Shown: one piece after another, positions 1,216-8,286 of the stretch
Position numbering within the stretch: position 1 is the stretch's first letter
Layout of the letters: each line of letters starts with the position of its first letter
From: Candidatus Heimdallarchaeota archaeon
GTDB lineage: Archaea; Asgardarchaeota; Heimdallarchaeia; Heimdallarchaeales; Heimdallarchaeaceae
Assembly (NCBI GenBank): GCA_021399395.1
Contig: JAAFKJ010000142.1
Coordinates: 1-13,483, forward strand
DNA length: 13,483 nucleotides
Direction of reading: 5' to 3'
The notes under the pieces: model-generated
Database searches by the model: none
What the model saw: the letters and a program-made list of their open reading frames with translations, nothing else
Told to the model about the DNA's origin: nothing
Made by a program: the position numbers and the translations under genes

Positions 1216-2559
1216 TTAGGCAGTAGCACCATTACCGTTTGCAATATGTTTCCTTAGGTATGCTTGATTGTTTGATTCAGGTTGATCTGGCTTATATTTA
1301 CCAAAATTACCATTGATCAGTTTATCGTTGATCTTAGCGATTGTGCTGTCAAGCATCCACTCTTTATCAACTCTCCATTTCTTTTGTTTCCAATCGAAAT
1401 TCTCATACTCAAATGTCCAATATAGACCATGTTTTCCAAAGAAATCAAGTGAGTAGATTTTGTAGTCTTTGAAAGTACTCCAAATGAGATAATTAATATT
1501 TGATTCATCGTACGGAGGCATAGTAAGTCTGAGGAATATTCCTTTGTTATAGAGCTCGAGGTGGGATTGAAATGGTATATTCTCCTCGTGGAAGAAACGG
1601 AAAATTTGGGCTTTTTCCTTTTCTGGAACATTCTCAATGAAATATGCTCGTGTAGCATGTTGCTCAAATAATTTTCGACTGAAATTCCAGCGTGGATTAG
1701 TGATAAGATTATTCATTACTAGATTGTAGTATCTACGACCGAATTCAACTTTGGTGTTATGTAAATTCTTATCGTCAAAGAACTCACTTAAGTTGAAAAG
1801 CATTGATTCTTCTTCATGGGTTAGTTTGTTTTCCTCAGAAGAGTTAGCAGCAAGTTGATTCTTCTTTGTAAGATGTTTATATTTGTCTTGATAATGCTTA
1901 ATCAAATCAGTTTGTTTAGTTCTGATATCAATAACAATTCCGTTTTTAACAGAAGTAGTTAAATCCTTCAAAAGCTGGAAATGAAGAGGTTCTAAAGTAT
2001 TTAGATCAATTGCAGAAGGCAGTCTAGGCAAACTTGTACTTTTTGAAAGTCGTTTCTCCCAATATGATATTAGATCGAATGGTTTGGGATTCTGAGTATA
2101 GTTGGGTAGGGGTTGTGGCCTGGTGAACCGATAACCCATGGATTTCATTGTGAAATAACTATCACAATACTCCTGTTCAACTAAATGCTCAAGGTACTCG
2201 TTAAATAATTGCTCAGTATTCTCTGGTAGCTCGAAATGTGCGTAAATCCCAAAACTTTCACCATAAAAGCGATTGTATGCTCGAATATATTTGTGCTCAG
2301 ATAAGGCGTTTTGCAATAAAGTAAACTGGTGGAGCGAACTTATTGAAAACATGACACCATATCTATATAGTGAAATACGTTCAGGGACAAAAGACGCGAT
2401 AGGATTACGGAGAATCTCTTTCTTTTGCAATGCTTTAACTCGTCGAATCATTGTTTGGGGAGAAATATTTAGTTTCTCAGCCTGCTTAGAATATGGTTCT
2501 AGTGGATAATTCTGTAGAACATGCAGTATTTTCATGTCAAGTATGTTTAAATGATCCAT
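1216..2559 (-). CDS. Large Lrp/AsnC-family transcriptional regulator with two wHTH/effector-like modules (447 aa from ATG 2559)
   Basis: N-terminal 'LDMKILHVLQNYPLEPYSKQAEKLNISPQTMIRRVKALQKKEIL' is a typical Lrp/AsnC HTH, followed by a RAM-like region ('NRFYGESFGIYAHF'). A second degenerate module begins at 'LEPLHFQLLKDL'. ATG 2559 is preferred over TTG 2622 because SD-like GAGGT precedes it. Confidence 0.75.
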   Translation of the reverse strand: MDHLNILDMKILHVLQNYPLEPYSKQAEKLNISPQTMIRRVKALQKKEILRNPIASFVPERISLYRYGVMFSISSLHQFTLLQNALSEHKYIRAYNRFYGESFGIYAHFELPENTEQLFNEYLEHLVEQEYCDSYFTMKSMGYRFTRPQPLPNYTQNPKPFDLISYWEKRLSKSTSLPRLPSAIDLNTLEPLHFQLLKDLTTSVKNGIVIDIRTKQTDLIKHYQDKYKHLTKKNQLAANSSEENKLTHEEESMLFNLSEFFDDKNLHNTKVEFGRRYYNLVMNNLITNPRWNFSRKLFEQHATRAYFIENVPEKEKAQIFRFFHEENIPFQSHLELYNKGIFLRLTMPPYDESNINYLIWSTFKDYKIYSLDFFGKHGLYWTFEYENFDWKQKKWRVDKEWMLDSTIAKINDKLINGNFGKYKPDQPESNNQAYLRKHIANGNGATA

Positions 2560-2629
2560 TTTTTTTGACCTCTGTTTTTGTTTTTGTTTAATTTTTGTAA
2601 GAAACAGTTCAGGATAGATCAAGAAGGAG

Positions 2630-2875
2630 CTTGTAAAAGAAATGTAGCGTCCGCATTTTGCGGTTAGTTATGATTCCTTTTACAAGACCCTCTCGATATC
2701 CCCTTCGAGAGACTCTTTTAGACCTCTAACCTTGTTTCTTGTTGGTTTGACCCCTTGCACTTGAGTTCGAATTAGCTTCCTTAGACCTTTCCCGGAAACC
2801 TTTGAGGGGGGATCTGACCTATGTCCCCCCAGGTTTTCCTTTCTCGCCTGAAATTGAGGAAAGGGGTGGGGTTTC
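2630..2875. other. Structured non-coding spacer with several stem-loops (candidate cis-regulatory RNA or ncRNA)
   Basis: Stems: CTTGTAAAAG/CTTTTACAAG (2630-2639/2677-2686) enclosing CCGCA/TGCGG (2651-2663); CTCTCGA/TCGAGAG (2690-2711); GGAAACCT..GGGGGGA/TCCCCCC..AGGTTTTCC (2794-2839); CCTTTCTC/GAGGAAAGG (2838-2864). Confidence 0.5.
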
Positions 2876-2905
2876 TGGCGATTTTAATTTTTTGTCAGCA
2901 TGATT

Positions 2906-3226
2906 TTATCCAGCAGCTGCAAAGCCGTGATAACCGATTGGTTCATCTTCAACAGGTGCGGCTCCCCCAGGTAGAAACCCTATTGGTTCATCCTCGACGG
3001 GTGCGGCTCCTCCAGGAAGAAACCCTATTGGTTCGTCCTCGACTGGACTTGCTCCCCCGGGTCGAAATCCGATTGGTTCATCTTCAACGGGACTTGCTCC
3101 TCCGGGTCGAAATCCGATTGGTTCATCTTCAACCGGGATTGAATTTGTAATCAAGATTGTTCCTGCGAACAGCGCAAGAAATGTTATTACACAAAATACC
3201 CCAAATATTTTCTGTTTAGTTTTCAT
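2906..3226 (-). CDS. Signal-peptide (or signal-anchor) protein with five tandem PVEDEPIG repeats; candidate multi-core peptide precursor
   Basis: 106 aa. Basic N-region MKTKQK, hydrophobic IFGVFCVITFLALFAGTILI, then PVEDEPIGFRPGGAS x2, PVEDEPIGFLPGGAA x2 and PVEDEPIGYHGFAAAG. SD-like GGTGG lies just upstream of the ATG. Repeat differences are mostly third-position synonymous in this frame. Confidence 0.9.
   Translation of the reverse strand: MKTKQKIFGVFCVITFLALFAGTILITNSIPVEDEPIGFRPGGASPVEDEPIGFRPGGASPVEDEPIGFLPGGAAPVEDEPIGFLPGGAAPVEDEPIGYHGFAAAG
2909..3136 (-). repeat. 45-nt coding tandem repeat: four full units plus a divergent terminal unit
   Basis: Units at 3136-3092, 3091-3047, 3046-3002, 3001-2957 and 2956-2909. 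Unit 1 reads CCG GTT GAA GAT GAA CCA ATC GGA TTT CGA CCC GGA GGA GCA AGT. Confidence 0.97.
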
Positions 3227-3274
3227 TTATATTCCACCAGCTTAATTCGAGCTTGTATCTACGTGTGTACTAGT

Positions 3275-3295
3275 ATTATTTAAGAGTTGTTACAA
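3275..3295 (-). promoter_or_regulatory. Putative TATA box (CTTAAATAAT) of the repeat-peptide gene, with an adjacent TTGT-N-ACAA palindrome
   Basis: Minus-strand CTTAAATAAT at 3284-3275, the same 10-mer found about 25 nt before the 6265 start. TTGTTACAA at 3287-3295 sits in the BRE position. Confidence 0.45.
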
Positions 3296-3903
3296 TTTTC
3301 CATGTTTTTGAAAATAGTGGAAAAAAGTAACATGGAACAGTTAAGGTTGCATTACTCCATCACTTGGCAAATTTTTAAAAAACCGTCTAATTTTTTTTGT
3401 CGGGATATTACCATCTTCTCTTCTTGATCATTGTGTAAGGCAAAATGTAAAACACCTTACAAACGTGAAAATATCTGGGTATATACGAGGATGATATTTC
3501 TTAGATTTTTTTTCGTTTGTAACTATGATTTATTTGATGAAAACTAAAGTATTTTTGATTAAACAAACACGAGCTATAATTTTGTGAATTGTTGAGTAAA
3601 TTAGAATTAATTATCAATGATTTTAGCTATTTTTGTCGAAACCTAGTTAGTTAGTTGATTAAATGAGCTCAGTTTGCGATATGGGAATATGTAAAAAGTT
3701 ACTTATTTTCAATAAAAGCAAGTTAACAATCCATAAAAAAATACGTATTAATGGTGTGTATTTTTCTCCTTAAAAACTGGTTTAGTTGTATACAATCTGT
3801 CTTACAAGAATTTGTCGGAATATTAGGTGTGTTTTTCGTATCCTTTAACCTGAAAATAAATGATTTTGTTGATAAATCCTGATTTTTAATGGCTGAGTGA
3901 GTA

Positions 3904-5076
3904 TTAGTTTCTCTTTTTTCTATATATCCACCCTATTACAAGAAACATTGTAGATGTTAGCACCAAAGATAGTGTCGTTTCTGTTGTTGGTGTGACAAAA
4001 CCTTCAATCGCTGCTGGTATGATATACGTTTCTGCTATGTGTAGGAAAGGCCATTCACCCTCAGGTAAACTTGAAGTGAAGACTGTTACAATATCGTATC
4101 CTGGTAACACTAAAATTATTTGACCTGCCCATCCTATTGCTAAGTAAGTGTCAAGAGTAGGATAAACCCACCATTGATATCCATAGTCAATGAAATTTGT
4201 GTTTGTAACAGTAGCGTTTGATGCATGATGAACATATTCTTCCGAAATGATTTGAGTGTCATTCCATGTACCATTATTCAGATAAAGATATCCCAATTTT
4301 GCCATATCTCTCGGTTTAAGCTGTAAATCTGCCCCTCCAAAATATATACCTTGAGGATCTTGGAGCCAAAGCCAATCTTCAAACCCTAGAGGGTCAAATA
4401 GCTGTTCTATAGCATACTCCAGAGTAGTGTTACCTATTGCTTTCTCAACTATTGCTGATAATAAGTGTGATGCACCTGAATTGTATCTGAATGCCAATCC
4501 TGGTTCAGCTTCCATTTCCCTACTTAAGACATATTCCACCCAGTTTTCGCTTGCTTTCATTTGCGTGAAAGTGTTCGCAGGATCATAGTATGAAATATCT
4601 TCATTCCAAGCTATTCCCGAGGTCATTGTCAAAAGATGATAGATGGTAATATTTTCTCTTAATTCGATATTAGGAACAGAAACGTTGACAAAGAACTCCA
4701 TGATATTTTGATTGATACTATCTATGTATCCTTCATCTATTGCAATTCCAATTAGAGTGGAAACGAAACTCTTGGTTACAGAATAAACAGAATGTAGAGA
4801 ATCAGCTGTATAGAATCTAAGATATTCATCAACGACTAGATAACCATTTTTGACAATTTGAACACTATCGATGTCATAGTTGTTGCTGTCAATATATTCG
4901 AACATATTATCTATTGTTTGTTTGTTCAAATCTGCTTCCTCGAAGGAAGCCTTTTCCCAACCATTTGTGGGCCAATAATCTCGCTCGATACTAGCACAAG
5001 AATTTGTTAAAGTTGTAGAATTGGACAGAAATAGAATTATAAGCATAAAGTAAAAATACAGAGATTTGTTCTTCAT
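3904..5076 (-). CDS. Secreted, C-terminally anchored serine hydrolase of the beta-lactamase class C (AmpC/NylB-like) family
   Basis: SxxK motif 'YSVTKS', 'LLTMTSG', 'PGLAFRYNSG', 'PRDMAKLGYLYLNNGTW', 'YGYQWW', 'AIGWAGQ'. N-terminal signal peptide; C-terminal Thr-rich linker, hydrophobic helix and RKKRN tail. ATG 5076 has SD AGGTG and is preferred over 5109. Confidence 0.9.
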   Translation of the reverse strand: MKNKSLYFYFMLIILFLSNSTTLTNSCASIERDYWPTNGWEKASFEEADLNKQTIDNMFEYIDSNNYDIDSVQIVKNGYLVVDEYLRFYTADSLHSVYSVTKSFVSTLIGIAIDEGYIDSINQNIMEFFVNVSVPNIELRENITIYHLLTMTSGIAWNEDISYYDPANTFTQMKASENWVEYVLSREMEAEPGLAFRYNSGASHLLSAIVEKAIGNTTLEYAIEQLFDPLGFEDWLWLQDPQGIYFGGADLQLKPRDMAKLGYLYLNNGTWNDTQIISEEYVHHASNATVTNTNFIDYGYQWWVYPTLDTYLAIGWAGQIILVLPGYDIVTVFTSSLPEGEWPFLHIAETYIIPAAIEGFVTPTTETTLSLVLTSTMFLVIGWIYRKKRN

Positions 5077-5287
5077 AACTACACCTAATTTAATCTGAAT
5101 GACTTTCAAACAATTATATAGGTTTGTAAATAAAGCAAAAAGTTAGAAGGTATGGATTTTGTATTTATAAGCCCAGATTTATAGAAAACAGTTATTTTGA
5201 AATCATTAAATAAAGTCTCAACTACATTGTTAAATTCTGTTCTTTTACTAAATTAGTTTAGATTAACCTTTGTCCTGATCTCTATCA

Positions 5288-6265
5288 TCAGTCGCTTTCA
5301 CGTATTTCGTGTTCTCTGACTATTCTTCGTTCTTCATCTACCAGTAAACTCTGTTCAGCTTCTTCTCGAAGTCTGAGTTCTTCAATCCTTAATTCATATA
5401 TTCTTTCTAACTGATCTAATCTATCTGTCATAGCTGTTTCTGAAACATCGTCTCTCACTCCACGAGTTTCTATTTCTGCTTCTAGTTCTTCCATTCTGGC
5501 CTCAAGCCGTGCTCTTGTATCTTCTGTAATGATGAACATATTTGCATGATGGAAAAATAGTGTTTGATCATAGTGTCTTCGTTTTCCAGCTAGTCTGAGG
5601 GTGTATGTAATTTTTTCTCTTTCTTCTTCAGGTGCATCAGCTGTAACTGGTTCATGGTAGAACCGTTGCTTAGGTATAAAGATTCTTAAAGGATCATCAG
5701 GTGTATCATGAACCTTGGTGTAGAAATGCCTTAATCTTTTCATTTTTTTTCTTCTGGAAGTTTCTTTCATCAATGATTTGCTGTTATTTGTTCTTCTGGT
5801 TACTGGGTAGGTTTTTTTCTTGCTACTAGTTCTGTCAATTTCGTTGTCTTCATCATCCCTAACAATTGTTGTAACTGGCTCGTGAGTTCTGAAAATCTGT
5901 AGAAAAGGATATTTCCTTTTACTATTTCGTTTTCTAGAACCTTGTCTACTACTAACCGTGAAAATCAAATCCCAAGGAACTTCTGGACTGATTTCGTAAT
6001 TTGTTACCTCTACCTTGATAATACATTTCTTCCTGTTTTTACTCTCCTTTAATCTCCTTTTTCTCTTCCTAACAGGTCTTCCTCCTAAAGCAATGTAGTC
6101 ATAATCGAAATAAGTTTGCATACAAGTTTCTCCACCAGAGTGCAAAATTGCTCCTGTGATGTCTAGTTTGGCTTTGACTAATTTCTGTGCTCGGTCGTCA
6201 TGATAGGATTTGACAGGTGATAATCTAAAAACTAAATTTGGTTTTTCACGACCAACTCCACTCAT
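5288..6265 (-). CDS. Hypothetical protein with a highly basic N-terminal region and a Glu/Arg-rich C-terminal coiled coil
   Basis: 325-aa ATG ORF with TATA-like CTTAAATAAT at 6296-6287. No family motif recognised. Confidence 0.7.
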   Translation of the reverse strand: MSGVGREKPNLVFRLSPVKSYHDDRAQKLVKAKLDITGAILHSGGETCMQTYFDYDYIALGGRPVRKRKRRLKESKNRKKCIIKVEVTNYEISPEVPWDLIFTVSSRQGSRKRNSKRKYPFLQIFRTHEPVTTIVRDDEDNEIDRTSSKKKTYPVTRRTNNSKSLMKETSRRKKMKRLRHFYTKVHDTPDDPLRIFIPKQRFYHEPVTADAPEEEREKITYTLRLAGKRRHYDQTLFFHHANMFIITEDTRARLEARMEELEAEIETRGVRDDVSETAMTDRLDQLERIYELRIEELRLREEAEQSLLVDEERRIVREHEIRESD

Positions 6266-6811: not shown

Positions 6812-7747
6812 ATGAAATATATTTATGGACCAGTTCCTTCGAGAAGGTTGGGAAAGTCCCTAGGTATCAGCCCAATTCCTGATAAAACCTGTAACTATAC
6901 TTGCATCTACTGTCAACTCGGTAGAACTACTCAATATACAAATTCCAGAGAAATGTTCTTTCCTGTTGAGGAGATTATTGATGAGGTAAAGTGTGCTTTA
7001 AACCAAGAGAAGGATATTGATTTCATAACAATTGTTGGAGAAGGGGAACCTCTCCTCTATGAAGGATTAGGGGCCTTGATCTCCGAGGTAAAAGAACTTA
7101 CATCAACCCCTATCGCTATAATAACAAATGGAGCTTTACTCTCTAGAGACGATGTGAGAAAGGAAATTTTGGAAGCAGATGTGGTTTTACCAACATTGGA
7201 TGCATATTCAGAAGAGATGTTTAGGAAAATAAACCGACCTTTTAAGGATATTAAACTTGTGAATGTAATCGAGGGTTTCAGAGAATTCCGAAAGATTTTC
7301 AAAAACCAGATCTGGTTAGAAATTATGCTGATAAAGGACATGAATGATGATGTTAAATCTCTGAAAGAAATTAGAAAATTGATAGATCAAATCAAAGTAG
7401 ATAGGGTTTACATCAATGTTCCAATTAGACCTCCTGCTGAATCATGGGTTGAGATTCCTCCTTCTAATCGTCTAATTGTTGCACAAGAAATACTTAAAGC
7501 TGAGAGTATCGCTCATTTTGAAGAATTACTCGTTGATAGTGTTGATAGAGAATCTCCGCCATTCAACCAAATATTGAATATATTGAAAAGACATCCATTA
7601 AGAAACGAGCAAGTATACACTTTATTTCCCTCAATGTCAAAAAAGGAAATTGATTCCCTACTTGATGACATGAAAAGTGAAGATTTGATAGAACCGATTG
7701 AGTATAATAACAAAACATTTTGGGAGTTTAAACGCAGTAAATTATAG
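6812..7747 (+). CDS. Radical SAM Fe-S protein (COG0731-like)
   Basis: 'YIYGPVPSRRLGKSLGI', CxxxCxxC 'CNYTCIYCQLG', 'GEGEPLL', 'ITNG' and 'RPPAE' motifs typical of this group. Confidence 0.92.
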   Translation: MKYIYGPVPSRRLGKSLGISPIPDKTCNYTCIYCQLGRTTQYTNSREMFFPVEEIIDEVKCALNQEKDIDFITIVGEGEPLLYEGLGALISEVKELTSTPIAIITNGALLSRDDVRKEILEADVVLPTLDAYSEEMFRKINRPFKDIKLVNVIEGFREFRKIFKNQIWLEIMLIKDMNDDVKSLKEIRKLIDQIKVDRVYINVPIRPPAESWVEIPPSNRLIVAQEILKAESIAHFEELLVDSVDRESPPFNQILNILKRHPLRNEQVYTLFPSMSKKEIDSLLDDMKSEDLIEPIEYNNKTFWEFKRSKL

Positions 7748-7806
7748 ACAAGAGTTCTTTGAATAAAGTTTAAAATGTGATAGTTGCTTAATCTTAACGA
7801 TATTAC

Positions 7807-8286
7807 ATGAAACGGATAGGAATCATAATTTGTGATAGGTATAAGACATGCGATGGAGGGAAATGTTTTCGATCAGTAAGAGAGAAAGAAGGCACTTTTA
7901 AGATATACGAAAACGAGGATGTAGAAGTTGTTGGTTATTCAACCTGTGGGGGTTGTCCTGGAGGAAATATAGAATATGTTGCAGCTGGTATGAAGAAGTA
8001 TGGAGCTGATGTTATTCATTTTGCAACAGGTTTCTTAGCTGGTTACCCCCCTTGTCCATATATTGACATCTTCAAAAATTATATCGAAAAGGATATTGGG
8101 ATTCAAGTTGTTATAGGCACACATCCTATGCCCACAAATTACATTGAAAATCATGAGAAAATACAAGATATTCCAGACAAATATAAACAATACTGGAATA
8201 ACCTAGCAGATGCAGATGAATCAACAAAGTATGATTCTACTAGAACTGATTATATCGAAGAATTAGATAAAGAACTAAGAATATAA
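7807..8286 (+). CDS. CGGC-domain metal-binding protein
   Basis: 'IGIIIC...CDGGKCF', 'TCGGCPG', 'ADVIHFATG', 'YPPCP', 'VVIGTH'. Confidence 0.9.
   Translation: MKRIGIIICDRYKTCDGGKCFRSVREKEGTFKIYENEDVEVVGYSTCGGCPGGNIEYVAAGMKKYGADVIHFATGFLAGYPPCPYIDIFKNYIEKDIGIQVVIGTHPMPTNYIENHEKIQDIPDKYKQYWNNLADADESTKYDSTRTDYIEELDKELRI

Follow-up and report, generated by a model that had tools for sequence, protein, structure and literature searches.

A DEPIG-repeat gene paired with a tandem Lrp/AsnC-like regulator in one Heimdallarchaeota genus, and its apparent origin from the tail of an Asgard-wide exported beta-sandwich protein

The subject of this analysis is a 13,483-nucleotide (nt) stretch of DNA from a Candidatus Heimdallarchaeota archaeon (hereafter, the window), which is the entire contig JAAFKJ010000142.1 (C50) of the 2.8-Mb, 81.8% complete assembly GCA_021399395.1, and, within it, a minus-strand gene for a 106-amino-acid (aa) protein that consists of an N-terminal signal and five tandem units sharing the motif DEPIG. 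The protein begins with MKTKQK, followed by an uncharged hydrophobic run of 20-21 residues, the residues T-N-S-I and the series of units, namely, PVEDEPIG-FRPGGAS twice, PVEDEPIG-FLPGGAA twice and PVEDEPIG-YHGFAAAG up to the stop codon. Translation exactly reproduces the layout that had been described from the letters and open reading frames (ORFs) of this DNA (the sequence-only reading), with a signal, five PVEDEPIG units and three variants. The gene is preceded by a TATA-like box and a long palindrome and followed, on the same strand, by a conserved structured RNA and by the gene for a tandem Lrp/AsnC-like regulator, 346 nt away (Table 1).

The repeat gene is real, coding and under selection. 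Tandem Repeats Finder delineates a repeat at positions 2934-3138 with a period of 45, 4.5 copies, 85% matches and a score of 212. Among the five PVEDEPIG copies, there are 39 pairwise codon differences, all at third positions and synonymous, and no non-synonymous ones; these amount to at least nine separate third-base changes at six codons. Because these differences are all synonymous, the minus-strand frame is the selected one. Pairwise comparison of the first four complete units gives 37 synonymous and eight non-synonymous codon differences, the latter confined to the FR/FL and AS/AA positions. The antisense ORF that overlaps the gene (2821-3150, plus strand) comes without a conserved start or signal and is a by-product of the stop-free repeat. 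Translated in six frames, the 2.8-Mb assembly yields 5.63 million residues, among which the DEPIG motif is found five times, always within the repeat gene. Comparison of the protein with Pfam yielded only an Extensin_1 match (17.8 bits vs a cutoff of 105), NCBIfam gave no matches, and the best score in the ESM Atlas, 0.81, lies under the level where matches mean anything.

A word-based protein search retrieved two relatives, and whole-genome searches found more. With a profile of 13 members, the gene was detected in 17 of the 24 other genomes of the same genus. Outside the genus, it was found neither in six genomes from the family's four other genera nor in 16 genomes from the remainder of the order. 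Five more loci came from a metagenome scan. As found, the family is confined to one genus of Candidatus Heimdallarchaeota metagenome-assembled genomes (MAGs). A wide hidden Markov model search with alignment A1 gave 47 matches at E <= 0.001; of the 15 inspected, 10 belong to the family and five are unrelated repeat proteins, and the other 32, all long proteins, are probably low-complexity matches. Two further candidates were set aside. A Terriglobales protein (L041:5404-6831, a 476-aa frame) contains PVEDEPIG once, in a linker rich in Pro, Ser and Ala, and was taken as a chance match; weak matches in 4 of 22 genomes of a genus from another family (g14; L063-L066) represent a different exported protein that is alike in the signal region only. 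The g14 proteins, about 100 aa long, carry repeated GPHG and DGTGNQW motifs and paired cysteines. A full-text literature search, with subscription journals outside its coverage, found no comparable archaeal repeat protein or cassette, in agreement with the sequence-only reading, to which no archaeal counterpart was known.

The members of the family contain two to seven units. In five MAGs (G011, G013, G014, G018, G019), the contig ends inside the repeat array; the repeat thus breaks assemblies, so that copy numbers from MAGs are minimum values. A run of N lies inside the array in one MAG; the broken or gapped arrays are those of L007/L033 (G017:C118), L006, L008, L011, L012 and L019. The motif D-E-P-I-G is nearly fixed; one species has D-V-P-I-G instead, and members of a deeper branch have D-T-P-I-Q-G or D-Q-P-V-G. 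The motif is followed by two to six species-dependent residues (FR, FL, YL, AML, TML, YS, EFY, ELL, NGMDQA) and then by a Gly-rich stretch. The last unit has a short tail of its own, either of the HG[FY] type or strand-like, for example, SHAVNVCMI. The sequence-only reading had proposed a motif search across archaeal MAGs for a fixed block followed by variable residues in a varying number of copies, and this is the pattern observed among the relatives.

The regulator gene lies directly 3' of the repeat gene, on the same strand, in 12 of 13 genus loci; in the 13th, the contig ends at the gene. The regulator comprises 447-468 aa within the genus, matches the Pfam HTH_AsnC-type domain (E = 1.2e-6), and aligns through residues 24-151 with a whole Lrp/AsnC protein (PDB 2dbb; E = 0.004). 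The AlphaFold2 model (predicted local distance difference test, pLDDT, 84; predicted template-modelling score, pTM, 0.81) contains a winged helix-turn-helix (HTH) and a beta-alpha-beta-beta-alpha-beta (RAM-like) domain, each twice. No match to a tetratricopeptide repeat (TPR) family was found in the regulator. Complex prediction for the regulator with repeat-protein residues 30-106 gave a score of 0.00 in both runs, with no controls, and counts neither way.

Searching five genomes from sister genera for the regulator revealed four to six paralogues in each. Upstream of the paralogues examined is an ORF of about 150-170 aa with a signal peptide; two distant paralogues are preceded instead by a larger, C-terminally anchored ORF. 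The exported proteins align well (alignment A6, 14 sequences), with a YxDxDGDGxEDD loop after the first strand and, near the C-terminus, an invariant F-D-P-P followed by G-G-x-x-D-x-(D/E)-P and a short last strand. They are modelled as an eight-strand beta-sandwich of about 110 residues (pLDDT 87), in which the tail forms a loop and the last strand. A fold search with this model returned generic beta-sandwiches only, the best being the Wzt carbohydrate-binding domain (E = 9.5e-4, TM score 0.49), and therefore no function can be derived from it. The sandwich proteins fall into no NCBIfam family, and those exported cassette proteins that were scanned had only sub-threshold Pfam matches. Their database relatives, all labelled hypothetical protein, come from Heimdall-, Kari-, Thor- and Odin-labelled MAGs and have tails such as FDPPGGSGDADPCG and FDPPSEE.PDD[DE]P.

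Of 30 loci, 29 have a regulator homologue immediately downstream of the sandwich gene and in the same orientation (E <= 3e-19 for 25 of them, between 1e-3 and 1e-10 for four), and the 30th locus ends 300 nt past the sandwich gene. This two-gene cassette, combining an exported beta-sandwich protein with a tandem Lrp/AsnC-like regulator, is previously undescribed and occurs across the Asgard archaea. Matches to the sandwich profile were obtained in 102 of 400 sampled genomes of the phylum, with one to nine copies in each, so the cassette must do something general. Examples are L072:873-1331, L084:4644-5105 and L094:3603-4208, together with the 30 loci L097-L126. The genome from which the window comes also has a second, ordinary cassette on contig C40 (G000:C40:16102-17389; L094, L104), whose sandwich protein contains an insertion of about 45 residues that are almost wholly Asp, Glu and Tyr.

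The repeat unit is very probably homologous to the tail of these sandwich proteins. The nearest orthologues, in genomes G027 and G030, are proteins of about 150 aa with the C-terminus LEFDPPGGSGDEPIGGGVSP. When written as F-[RL]-P-G-G-A-[SA]-(PVE)-D-E-P-I-G, the unit of the window protein matches their LEFDPPGGSGDEPIG in PGG and DEPIG and is missing the Asp-Pro of FDPP, a match too short for hhalign. In a quick tree of 41 regulators, the 13 with an upstream repeat gene form one clade (Shimodaira-Hasegawa-like approximate likelihood-ratio test, SH-aLRT, 100), which branches from within the regulators that follow a sandwich gene (SH-aLRT 90). In the deeper members of the genus, a trace of the first strand is retained ahead of the repeats (KGVH.T.YTFDL vs G[VL]KITTAYYTDLD), and in one sister genus (G028), the sandwich gene occurs in a reduced form of 102 aa with a single tail. 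The two kinds of exported protein share the slot upstream of, and adjoining, the tandem Lrp/AsnC-like gene, the type of N-terminal signal, a related promoter palindrome and, very probably, the tail motif (PPGG-xx-DEPIG in the nearest orthologues). They differ in that the beta-sandwich of about 110 residues with its YxDxDGDGxEDD loop is absent from the window protein, that the tail is present once in the sandwich proteins but two to seven times in the repeat proteins, and that a 166-nt structured RNA, embedded in about 280 nt of conserved intergenic sequence, separates the genes only in the repeat genus. These comparisons show how the repeat gene appears to have originated in the ancestor of one genus, by loss of the sandwich domain and amplification of the tail, and make the locus a clear case of a repeat-peptide gene born from the tail of a folded protein. 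Because the DEPIG block would descend from the tail that an Asgard-wide beta-sandwich family conserves at its C-terminus, it is probably the working motif rather than a spacer. The sequence-only reading, which took PVEDEPIG as the spacer and the subsequent variable residues as the core of each unit, probably had this assignment the wrong way round.

Table 1. Position of the repeat gene, its control elements and the adjoining genes in the window
Feature	Position	Strand	Basis or remark
Coding sequence of the 106-aa DEPIG-repeat protein	2906..3226 (stop codon 2906-2908)	-	Translation, synonymous-only motif variation, orthologues
Predicted N-terminal export signal or signal-anchor, residues 1-29	3140..3226	-	n-region charge, hydrophobic run, small residues
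Five tandem units, residues 31-106	2909..3136	-	Four of 15 aa, PVEDEPIG-F[R/L]PGGA[S/A]; the last ends YHGFAAAG
Shine-Dalgarno-like GGTGG	3234..3238	-	7 nt before ATG
TATA-like box CTTAAATA	3277..3284	-	-58 from ATG
Palindrome TGTTAC-N-TTTCCA...TGGAAA-N-GTAACA, 45 nt, candidate four-half-site operator	3288..3332		Abuts the TATA box
Conserved structured RNA	2717..2882 (wider conserved stretch 2623-2905)	-	Alignment, covariance model
Tandem Lrp/AsnC-like protein	1216..2559 (ATG likely at 2559; longest ORF from TTG at 2622)	-	Pfam, PDB, AlphaFold2
Beta-lactamase-family serine hydrolase, signal peptide, C-terminal membrane anchor	3904..5109	-	Pfam PF00144, E 4e-29

The signals that would control expression of the repeat gene are conserved throughout the genus. 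GGTGG is found at -12 to -15 (7-10 nt ahead of the ATG) in all 12 aligned genus loci, in which the ATG is conserved as well, and the TATA-like octamer, the presumable promoter element, occurs at -57 to -63 in 12 of 12. The palindrome (44-47 nt) is complete in 11 of these loci, its right half is present in all 12, and the pattern occurs at this one site only in the 2.8-Mb assembly. Palindromes of a related kind, with TTTCA/TGAAA or TTCCA/TGGAA as inner half-sites, precede the orthologous sandwich genes of G027, G030 and G028. Such an arrangement, four half-sites in two-fold symmetry, would suit a dimer of a protein with two HTH domains, and we infer that the palindrome is bound by the neighbouring regulator. 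Two weak Rfam microRNA-family matches at 3286-3334, the only ones at E <= 1 within 2500-3500, were discarded as they coincide with this palindrome.

The region between the repeat gene and the regulator gene contains an unannotated, genus-specific structured RNA, which is new. In an alignment of 14 loci, this gap measures 283-346 nt and includes long invariant blocks, compared to about 50-110 nt at the same place in ordinary cassettes. Each of the 14 sequences folds as a two-tier hairpin with GAGGUC in the loop. The inner stem maintains pairing despite sequence change (GGGGGGA/UCCCCCC, GGGCGUC/GACGCCC, GGACGUC/GACGUCC, GGGUCU/AGACCC); the outer stem is paired differently in the minimum free energy folds of G000 and G002. 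The motif GAGGUC/GGGGUC appears three times within the element. The covariance model R1 matches 18 of 18 genus loci and none of six sister loci; at the genome level, it hits once in each of the very 17 genomes with the repeat gene and in none of 58 genomes outside the genus. RNAalifold on MAFFT alignments, in which the arms were out of register, missed the hairpin, and a realignment by the covariance model was used instead. In this model-fitted alignment, six of the seven pairs of the inner helix show changes on both sides, and the covariation score is 0.279 vs 0.124 in shuffles (none of 500 as high) and at most 0.129 with slid partners; given that the model fit favours structure, the covariation is supportive rather than decisive. 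None of the 4227 Rfam covariance models matches 2623-2905 at E <= 1.

Six RNA-library runs were matched at about 4% of the sampled words each. Four of the runs cover only 2733-2891, which corresponds to the conserved RNA element, and a 47-nt piece inside the regulator gene (2503-2549), with a likeness of 85-99%, so that the contigs come from relatives; one contig of 439 nt reaches beyond the RNA element on the repeat-gene side. In these runs, no RNA sequence was detected over this genome's own repeat gene.

Judging by its N-terminus, the repeat protein is predicted to be exported. The n-region has a charge of +3 and is followed by an uncharged run of 21 residues, with a mean Kyte-Doolittle hydropathy of 2.55 over 19; across the family, 17-23 uncharged residues come before the first polar residue or unit. 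In line with the signal peptide proposed by the sequence-only reading, the N-terminus is of the Sec type, and by the positive-inside rule the repeats would be extracellular. In its length, the hydrophobic segment fits an uncleaved membrane anchor and a cleaved signal equally well. In members without a pro-region, the residues at positions -3 and -1 before the first unit are small (T-N-S, V-N-S, V-V-A, A-C-A and similar), as signal peptidase I would require. The part past the hydrophobic run (79 residues, from N28) includes 15 Asp or Glu and two Arg, for a net charge of about -13, and is 18% Pro and 19% Gly. Residues 30-106 hold no dibasic pair (KR/RR), which bears out the earlier remark that sites for Kex2- or furin-like processing are missing, and no other recognisable cleavage motif was identified in the protein. 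Among the compared loci, no gene for a protease, a transporter or a peptide-modifying enzyme travels with the repeat gene; likewise, when the contig's 13 large ORFs were scanned with Pfam, no maturation enzyme of the type that acts on ribosomally synthesized and post-translationally modified peptides was detected, be it a cyanobactin-type (subtilisin-like) protease or macrocyclase or a YcaO protein, and no transporter. Several other known signals and motifs were considered and rejected: a class III (pilin-type) signal, as the conserved Gly9 is preceded by Phe or Ile, not by Lys or Arg; a lipobox, as the Cys is not conserved in the family; an RTX-like Ca2+ repeat, as the register does not match; and an archaeosortase signal, as the repeat protein has no C-terminal membrane helix.

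The reading that we prefer, tentatively and at a little less than an even chance, is that the repeat protein is exported, acidic, disordered and uncut, a chain whose several DEPIG motifs would be displayed to whatever partner the ancestral tail has. The chain is taken to be uncut because of the absence of a recognisable cleavage motif and of a conserved protease or transporter gene. Under this scenario, the Sec system would export the repeat part, and the chain would be either tethered by an uncleaved hydrophobic segment of 20 residues or freed by signal peptidase after T-N-S. A single chain could then offer multiple copies of DEPIG to the partner of the sandwich tail, with the copy number providing avidity, and the residues that follow PIG might tune the interaction. 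Transcription would start from the TATA box flanked by the 45-nt palindrome, which is most simply viewed as an operator of the neighbouring regulator, and the transcript probably continues through the structured RNA into the regulator gene.

Several points weigh against this picture of a multivalent chain. The layout of the protein, with a signal, units placed end to end, species-specific variants and a variable copy number, is also that of polyprotein precursors. The partner of the DEPIG tail is hypothetical, and, because the tail belongs to a domain in the ancestral fold, a binding role for the free-standing motif is an assumption. The small residues at -3 and -1 ahead of the first unit suggest cleavage by signal peptidase. 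In an hhalign comparison of the sandwich and repeat families, the alignment was confined to the signal peptides (probability 22% and 12%), so that the homology of unit and tail rests on the short motif, on position and synteny and on the regulator tree. The RNA libraries provide weak evidence of transcription, with DNA carry-over being possible.

The strongest alternative, which we nevertheless deem unlikely, is that the chain is a polyprotein that is cut into DEPIG peptides of about 15 residues or shorter, in two or three variants, which build up outside the cell and are sensed by the regulator, either directly after uptake or indirectly, with the regulator acting on the palindrome. Consistent with this possibility, the protein consists of a signal, n units and a stop, with no other domain, and the units come in two to seven copies and species-specific variants; the loss of the folded domain together with the multiplication of the tail under purifying selection implies that the tail is the functional unit. 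The exported gene is strictly paired, in 29 of 30 cassettes, with the gene for a predicted cytosolic regulator whose RAM-like domains are of a ligand-binding type, the cassettes occur one to nine times per genome, as is reminiscent of Rap-Phr, a palindromic candidate operator is located at the would-be peptide promoter, and the -3 and -1 residues are compatible with signal peptidase. A secreted serine hydrolase, furthermore, is encoded directly upstream of the repeat gene in six genus genomes and 3.5-4 kb off in two. No such gene was found in 54 other cassette loci (L071-L126), the only matches, at 2 of 56 loci, being pieces of this contig. However, the hydrolase gene was not seen at the locus in at least five genomes that keep the repeat gene, and its link to the repeat protein is speculative. 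Furthermore, there is no cleavage motif that could be named, most of the cassettes specify a folded 150-aa protein, which is untypical of a propeptide, no peptide importer is linked to the cassette, and RAM domains, as is generally known for the Lrp/AsnC family, bind amino acids rather than peptides.

Similar architectures are familiar from peptide precursors. Yeast alpha-factor and the fungal Kex2-processed repeat precursors, as well as cyanobactin PatE, likewise combine a signal or leader with repeated conserved and variable blocks in species-variable copy number, and the precursors of sponge proline-rich macrocyclic peptides reportedly have a multi-core layout of repeated units as well (PMC10945851). 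The window protein differs from these systems in that the dibasic sites of the Kex2 type and the maturation genes of the cyanobactin type have no counterpart in the protein and in the window, respectively, and in that the conserved block, unlike those of multi-core precursors, appears to descend from a loop in the structure of a folded protein.

A broader version of this idea, extended to the whole cassette, is improbable in our estimate: the cassette would be a system of archaeal peptide autoinduction, with DEPIG as the ligand, the tandem Lrp/AsnC-like protein as the receptor-regulator acting on the palindrome, and the one to nine paralogous cassettes as separate channels. The ligand would then be produced as several copies per chain in this genus and as the tail of the sandwich protein elsewhere, and the genus-specific structured RNA would add post-transcriptional control. 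In the PlcR-PapR, Rgg-SHP and Rap-Phr peptide signalling cassettes of Firmicutes, the regulator acts at the peptide gene, and some Phr precursors hold more than one copy of the peptide. The Asgard cassette resembles these systems, as generally described under the name RRNPP, in that a small product gene (here predicted to be exported) adjoins a gene for a DNA-binding regulator, with a palindrome at the peptide promoter and several paralogous cassettes per genome. In contrast to RRNPP, the regulator is Lrp/AsnC-like (winged HTH and RAM-like domain, twice) instead of a TPR protein, the exported gene is located upstream rather than downstream, and most of the Asgard cassettes encode a folded 150-aa protein. 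If an exported motif is indeed read by the neighbouring regulator, the cassette would be the first case of peptide signalling in archaea, the most interesting outcome. No known prokaryotes are closer to eukaryotes than the Asgard archaea, and what these archaea export and how they sense one another is almost uncharted; the locus offers a defined candidate operator along with a new structured RNA, both of which are accessible in vitro without culturing.

The two remaining explanations fit the selection pattern poorly. It is quite unlikely that the protein serves as a non-specific, hydrated acidic brush or as a binder of Ca2+ or Mg2+ at the cell surface, with the copy number only setting the length. 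The negative charge and the abundance of Pro and Gly would suit such a role, and, from the motif alone, the DxDxDGxxD-type loop and the acidic tail of the sandwich proteins could jointly bind Ca2+. Acidic, Pro- and Gly-rich repeats of surface proteins are similarly of low complexity, Pro-rich, extracellular (as predicted here) and variable in repeat number; the window protein is not a member of Extensin_1 and contains neither an anchoring domain nor a C-terminal sorting signal. A brush, however, has no need for Pro, Ile and Gly of DEPIG to be invariant while the codons drift, or for conservation of the motif, as FDPPGGSGD.DP, from Heimdall- to Thor-labelled MAGs.

Least probable of all is a decaying remnant of a sandwich gene, with an internal deletion, slippage-expanded repeats and a functionless product whose translation would at most aid downstream expression: the gene has lost a domain relative to its orthologues, has repeats that vary in number and break assemblies, and is missing from 7 of 24 genus genomes, but variation in the motif is synonymous only, and in 17 genomes, the ORFs are intact, with the start, the ribosome-binding site and the signal conserved although the regulators have diverged to 51-86% identity. 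As for the gene-less genomes, the RNA element is likewise missing in the five that were checked, and no orthologue of the regulator was found in them, the best match being a paralogue of 29-30% identity in two and nothing at E <= 1e-20 in three. Because all three elements are missing in the same five genomes, regulator, RNA element and repeat gene apparently go together, and a missing contig in these 78-86% complete MAGs is a better fit than gene decay.

The serine hydrolase, whose place beside the repeat gene is particular to this genus, has a Thr-rich linker and ends in a membrane helix with a basic tail, resembling a sortase signal without a PGF/PEF motif; its best NCBIfam match, 3-succinylated cholic acid synthase, is far under the cutoff. 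A radical SAM gene (6812-7747), 3.6 kb away from the repeat gene and on the opposite strand, has no match to a SPASM or peptide-binding domain, and, along with the CGGC gene (6812-8286 for the two), is part of the genus-level synteny on the other strand. Between these genes and the hydrolase, the minus strand (5288-6265) encodes a 325-aa protein rich in Lys, Arg and Glu that belongs to no Pfam or NCBIfam family and has homologues of 52% identity in the same region of G006 and G009. On the far side of the regulator, and convergent with it, are two plus-strand genes, likewise without a Pfam or NCBIfam family: one at 80-445 for a 121-aa protein that is 81-91% identical within the genus, and another, the start of which it overlaps, at 429-1061 for a fast-evolving 210-aa membrane protein (26-59% identical). 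Both are syntenic in the eight genus loci with enough flanking sequence.

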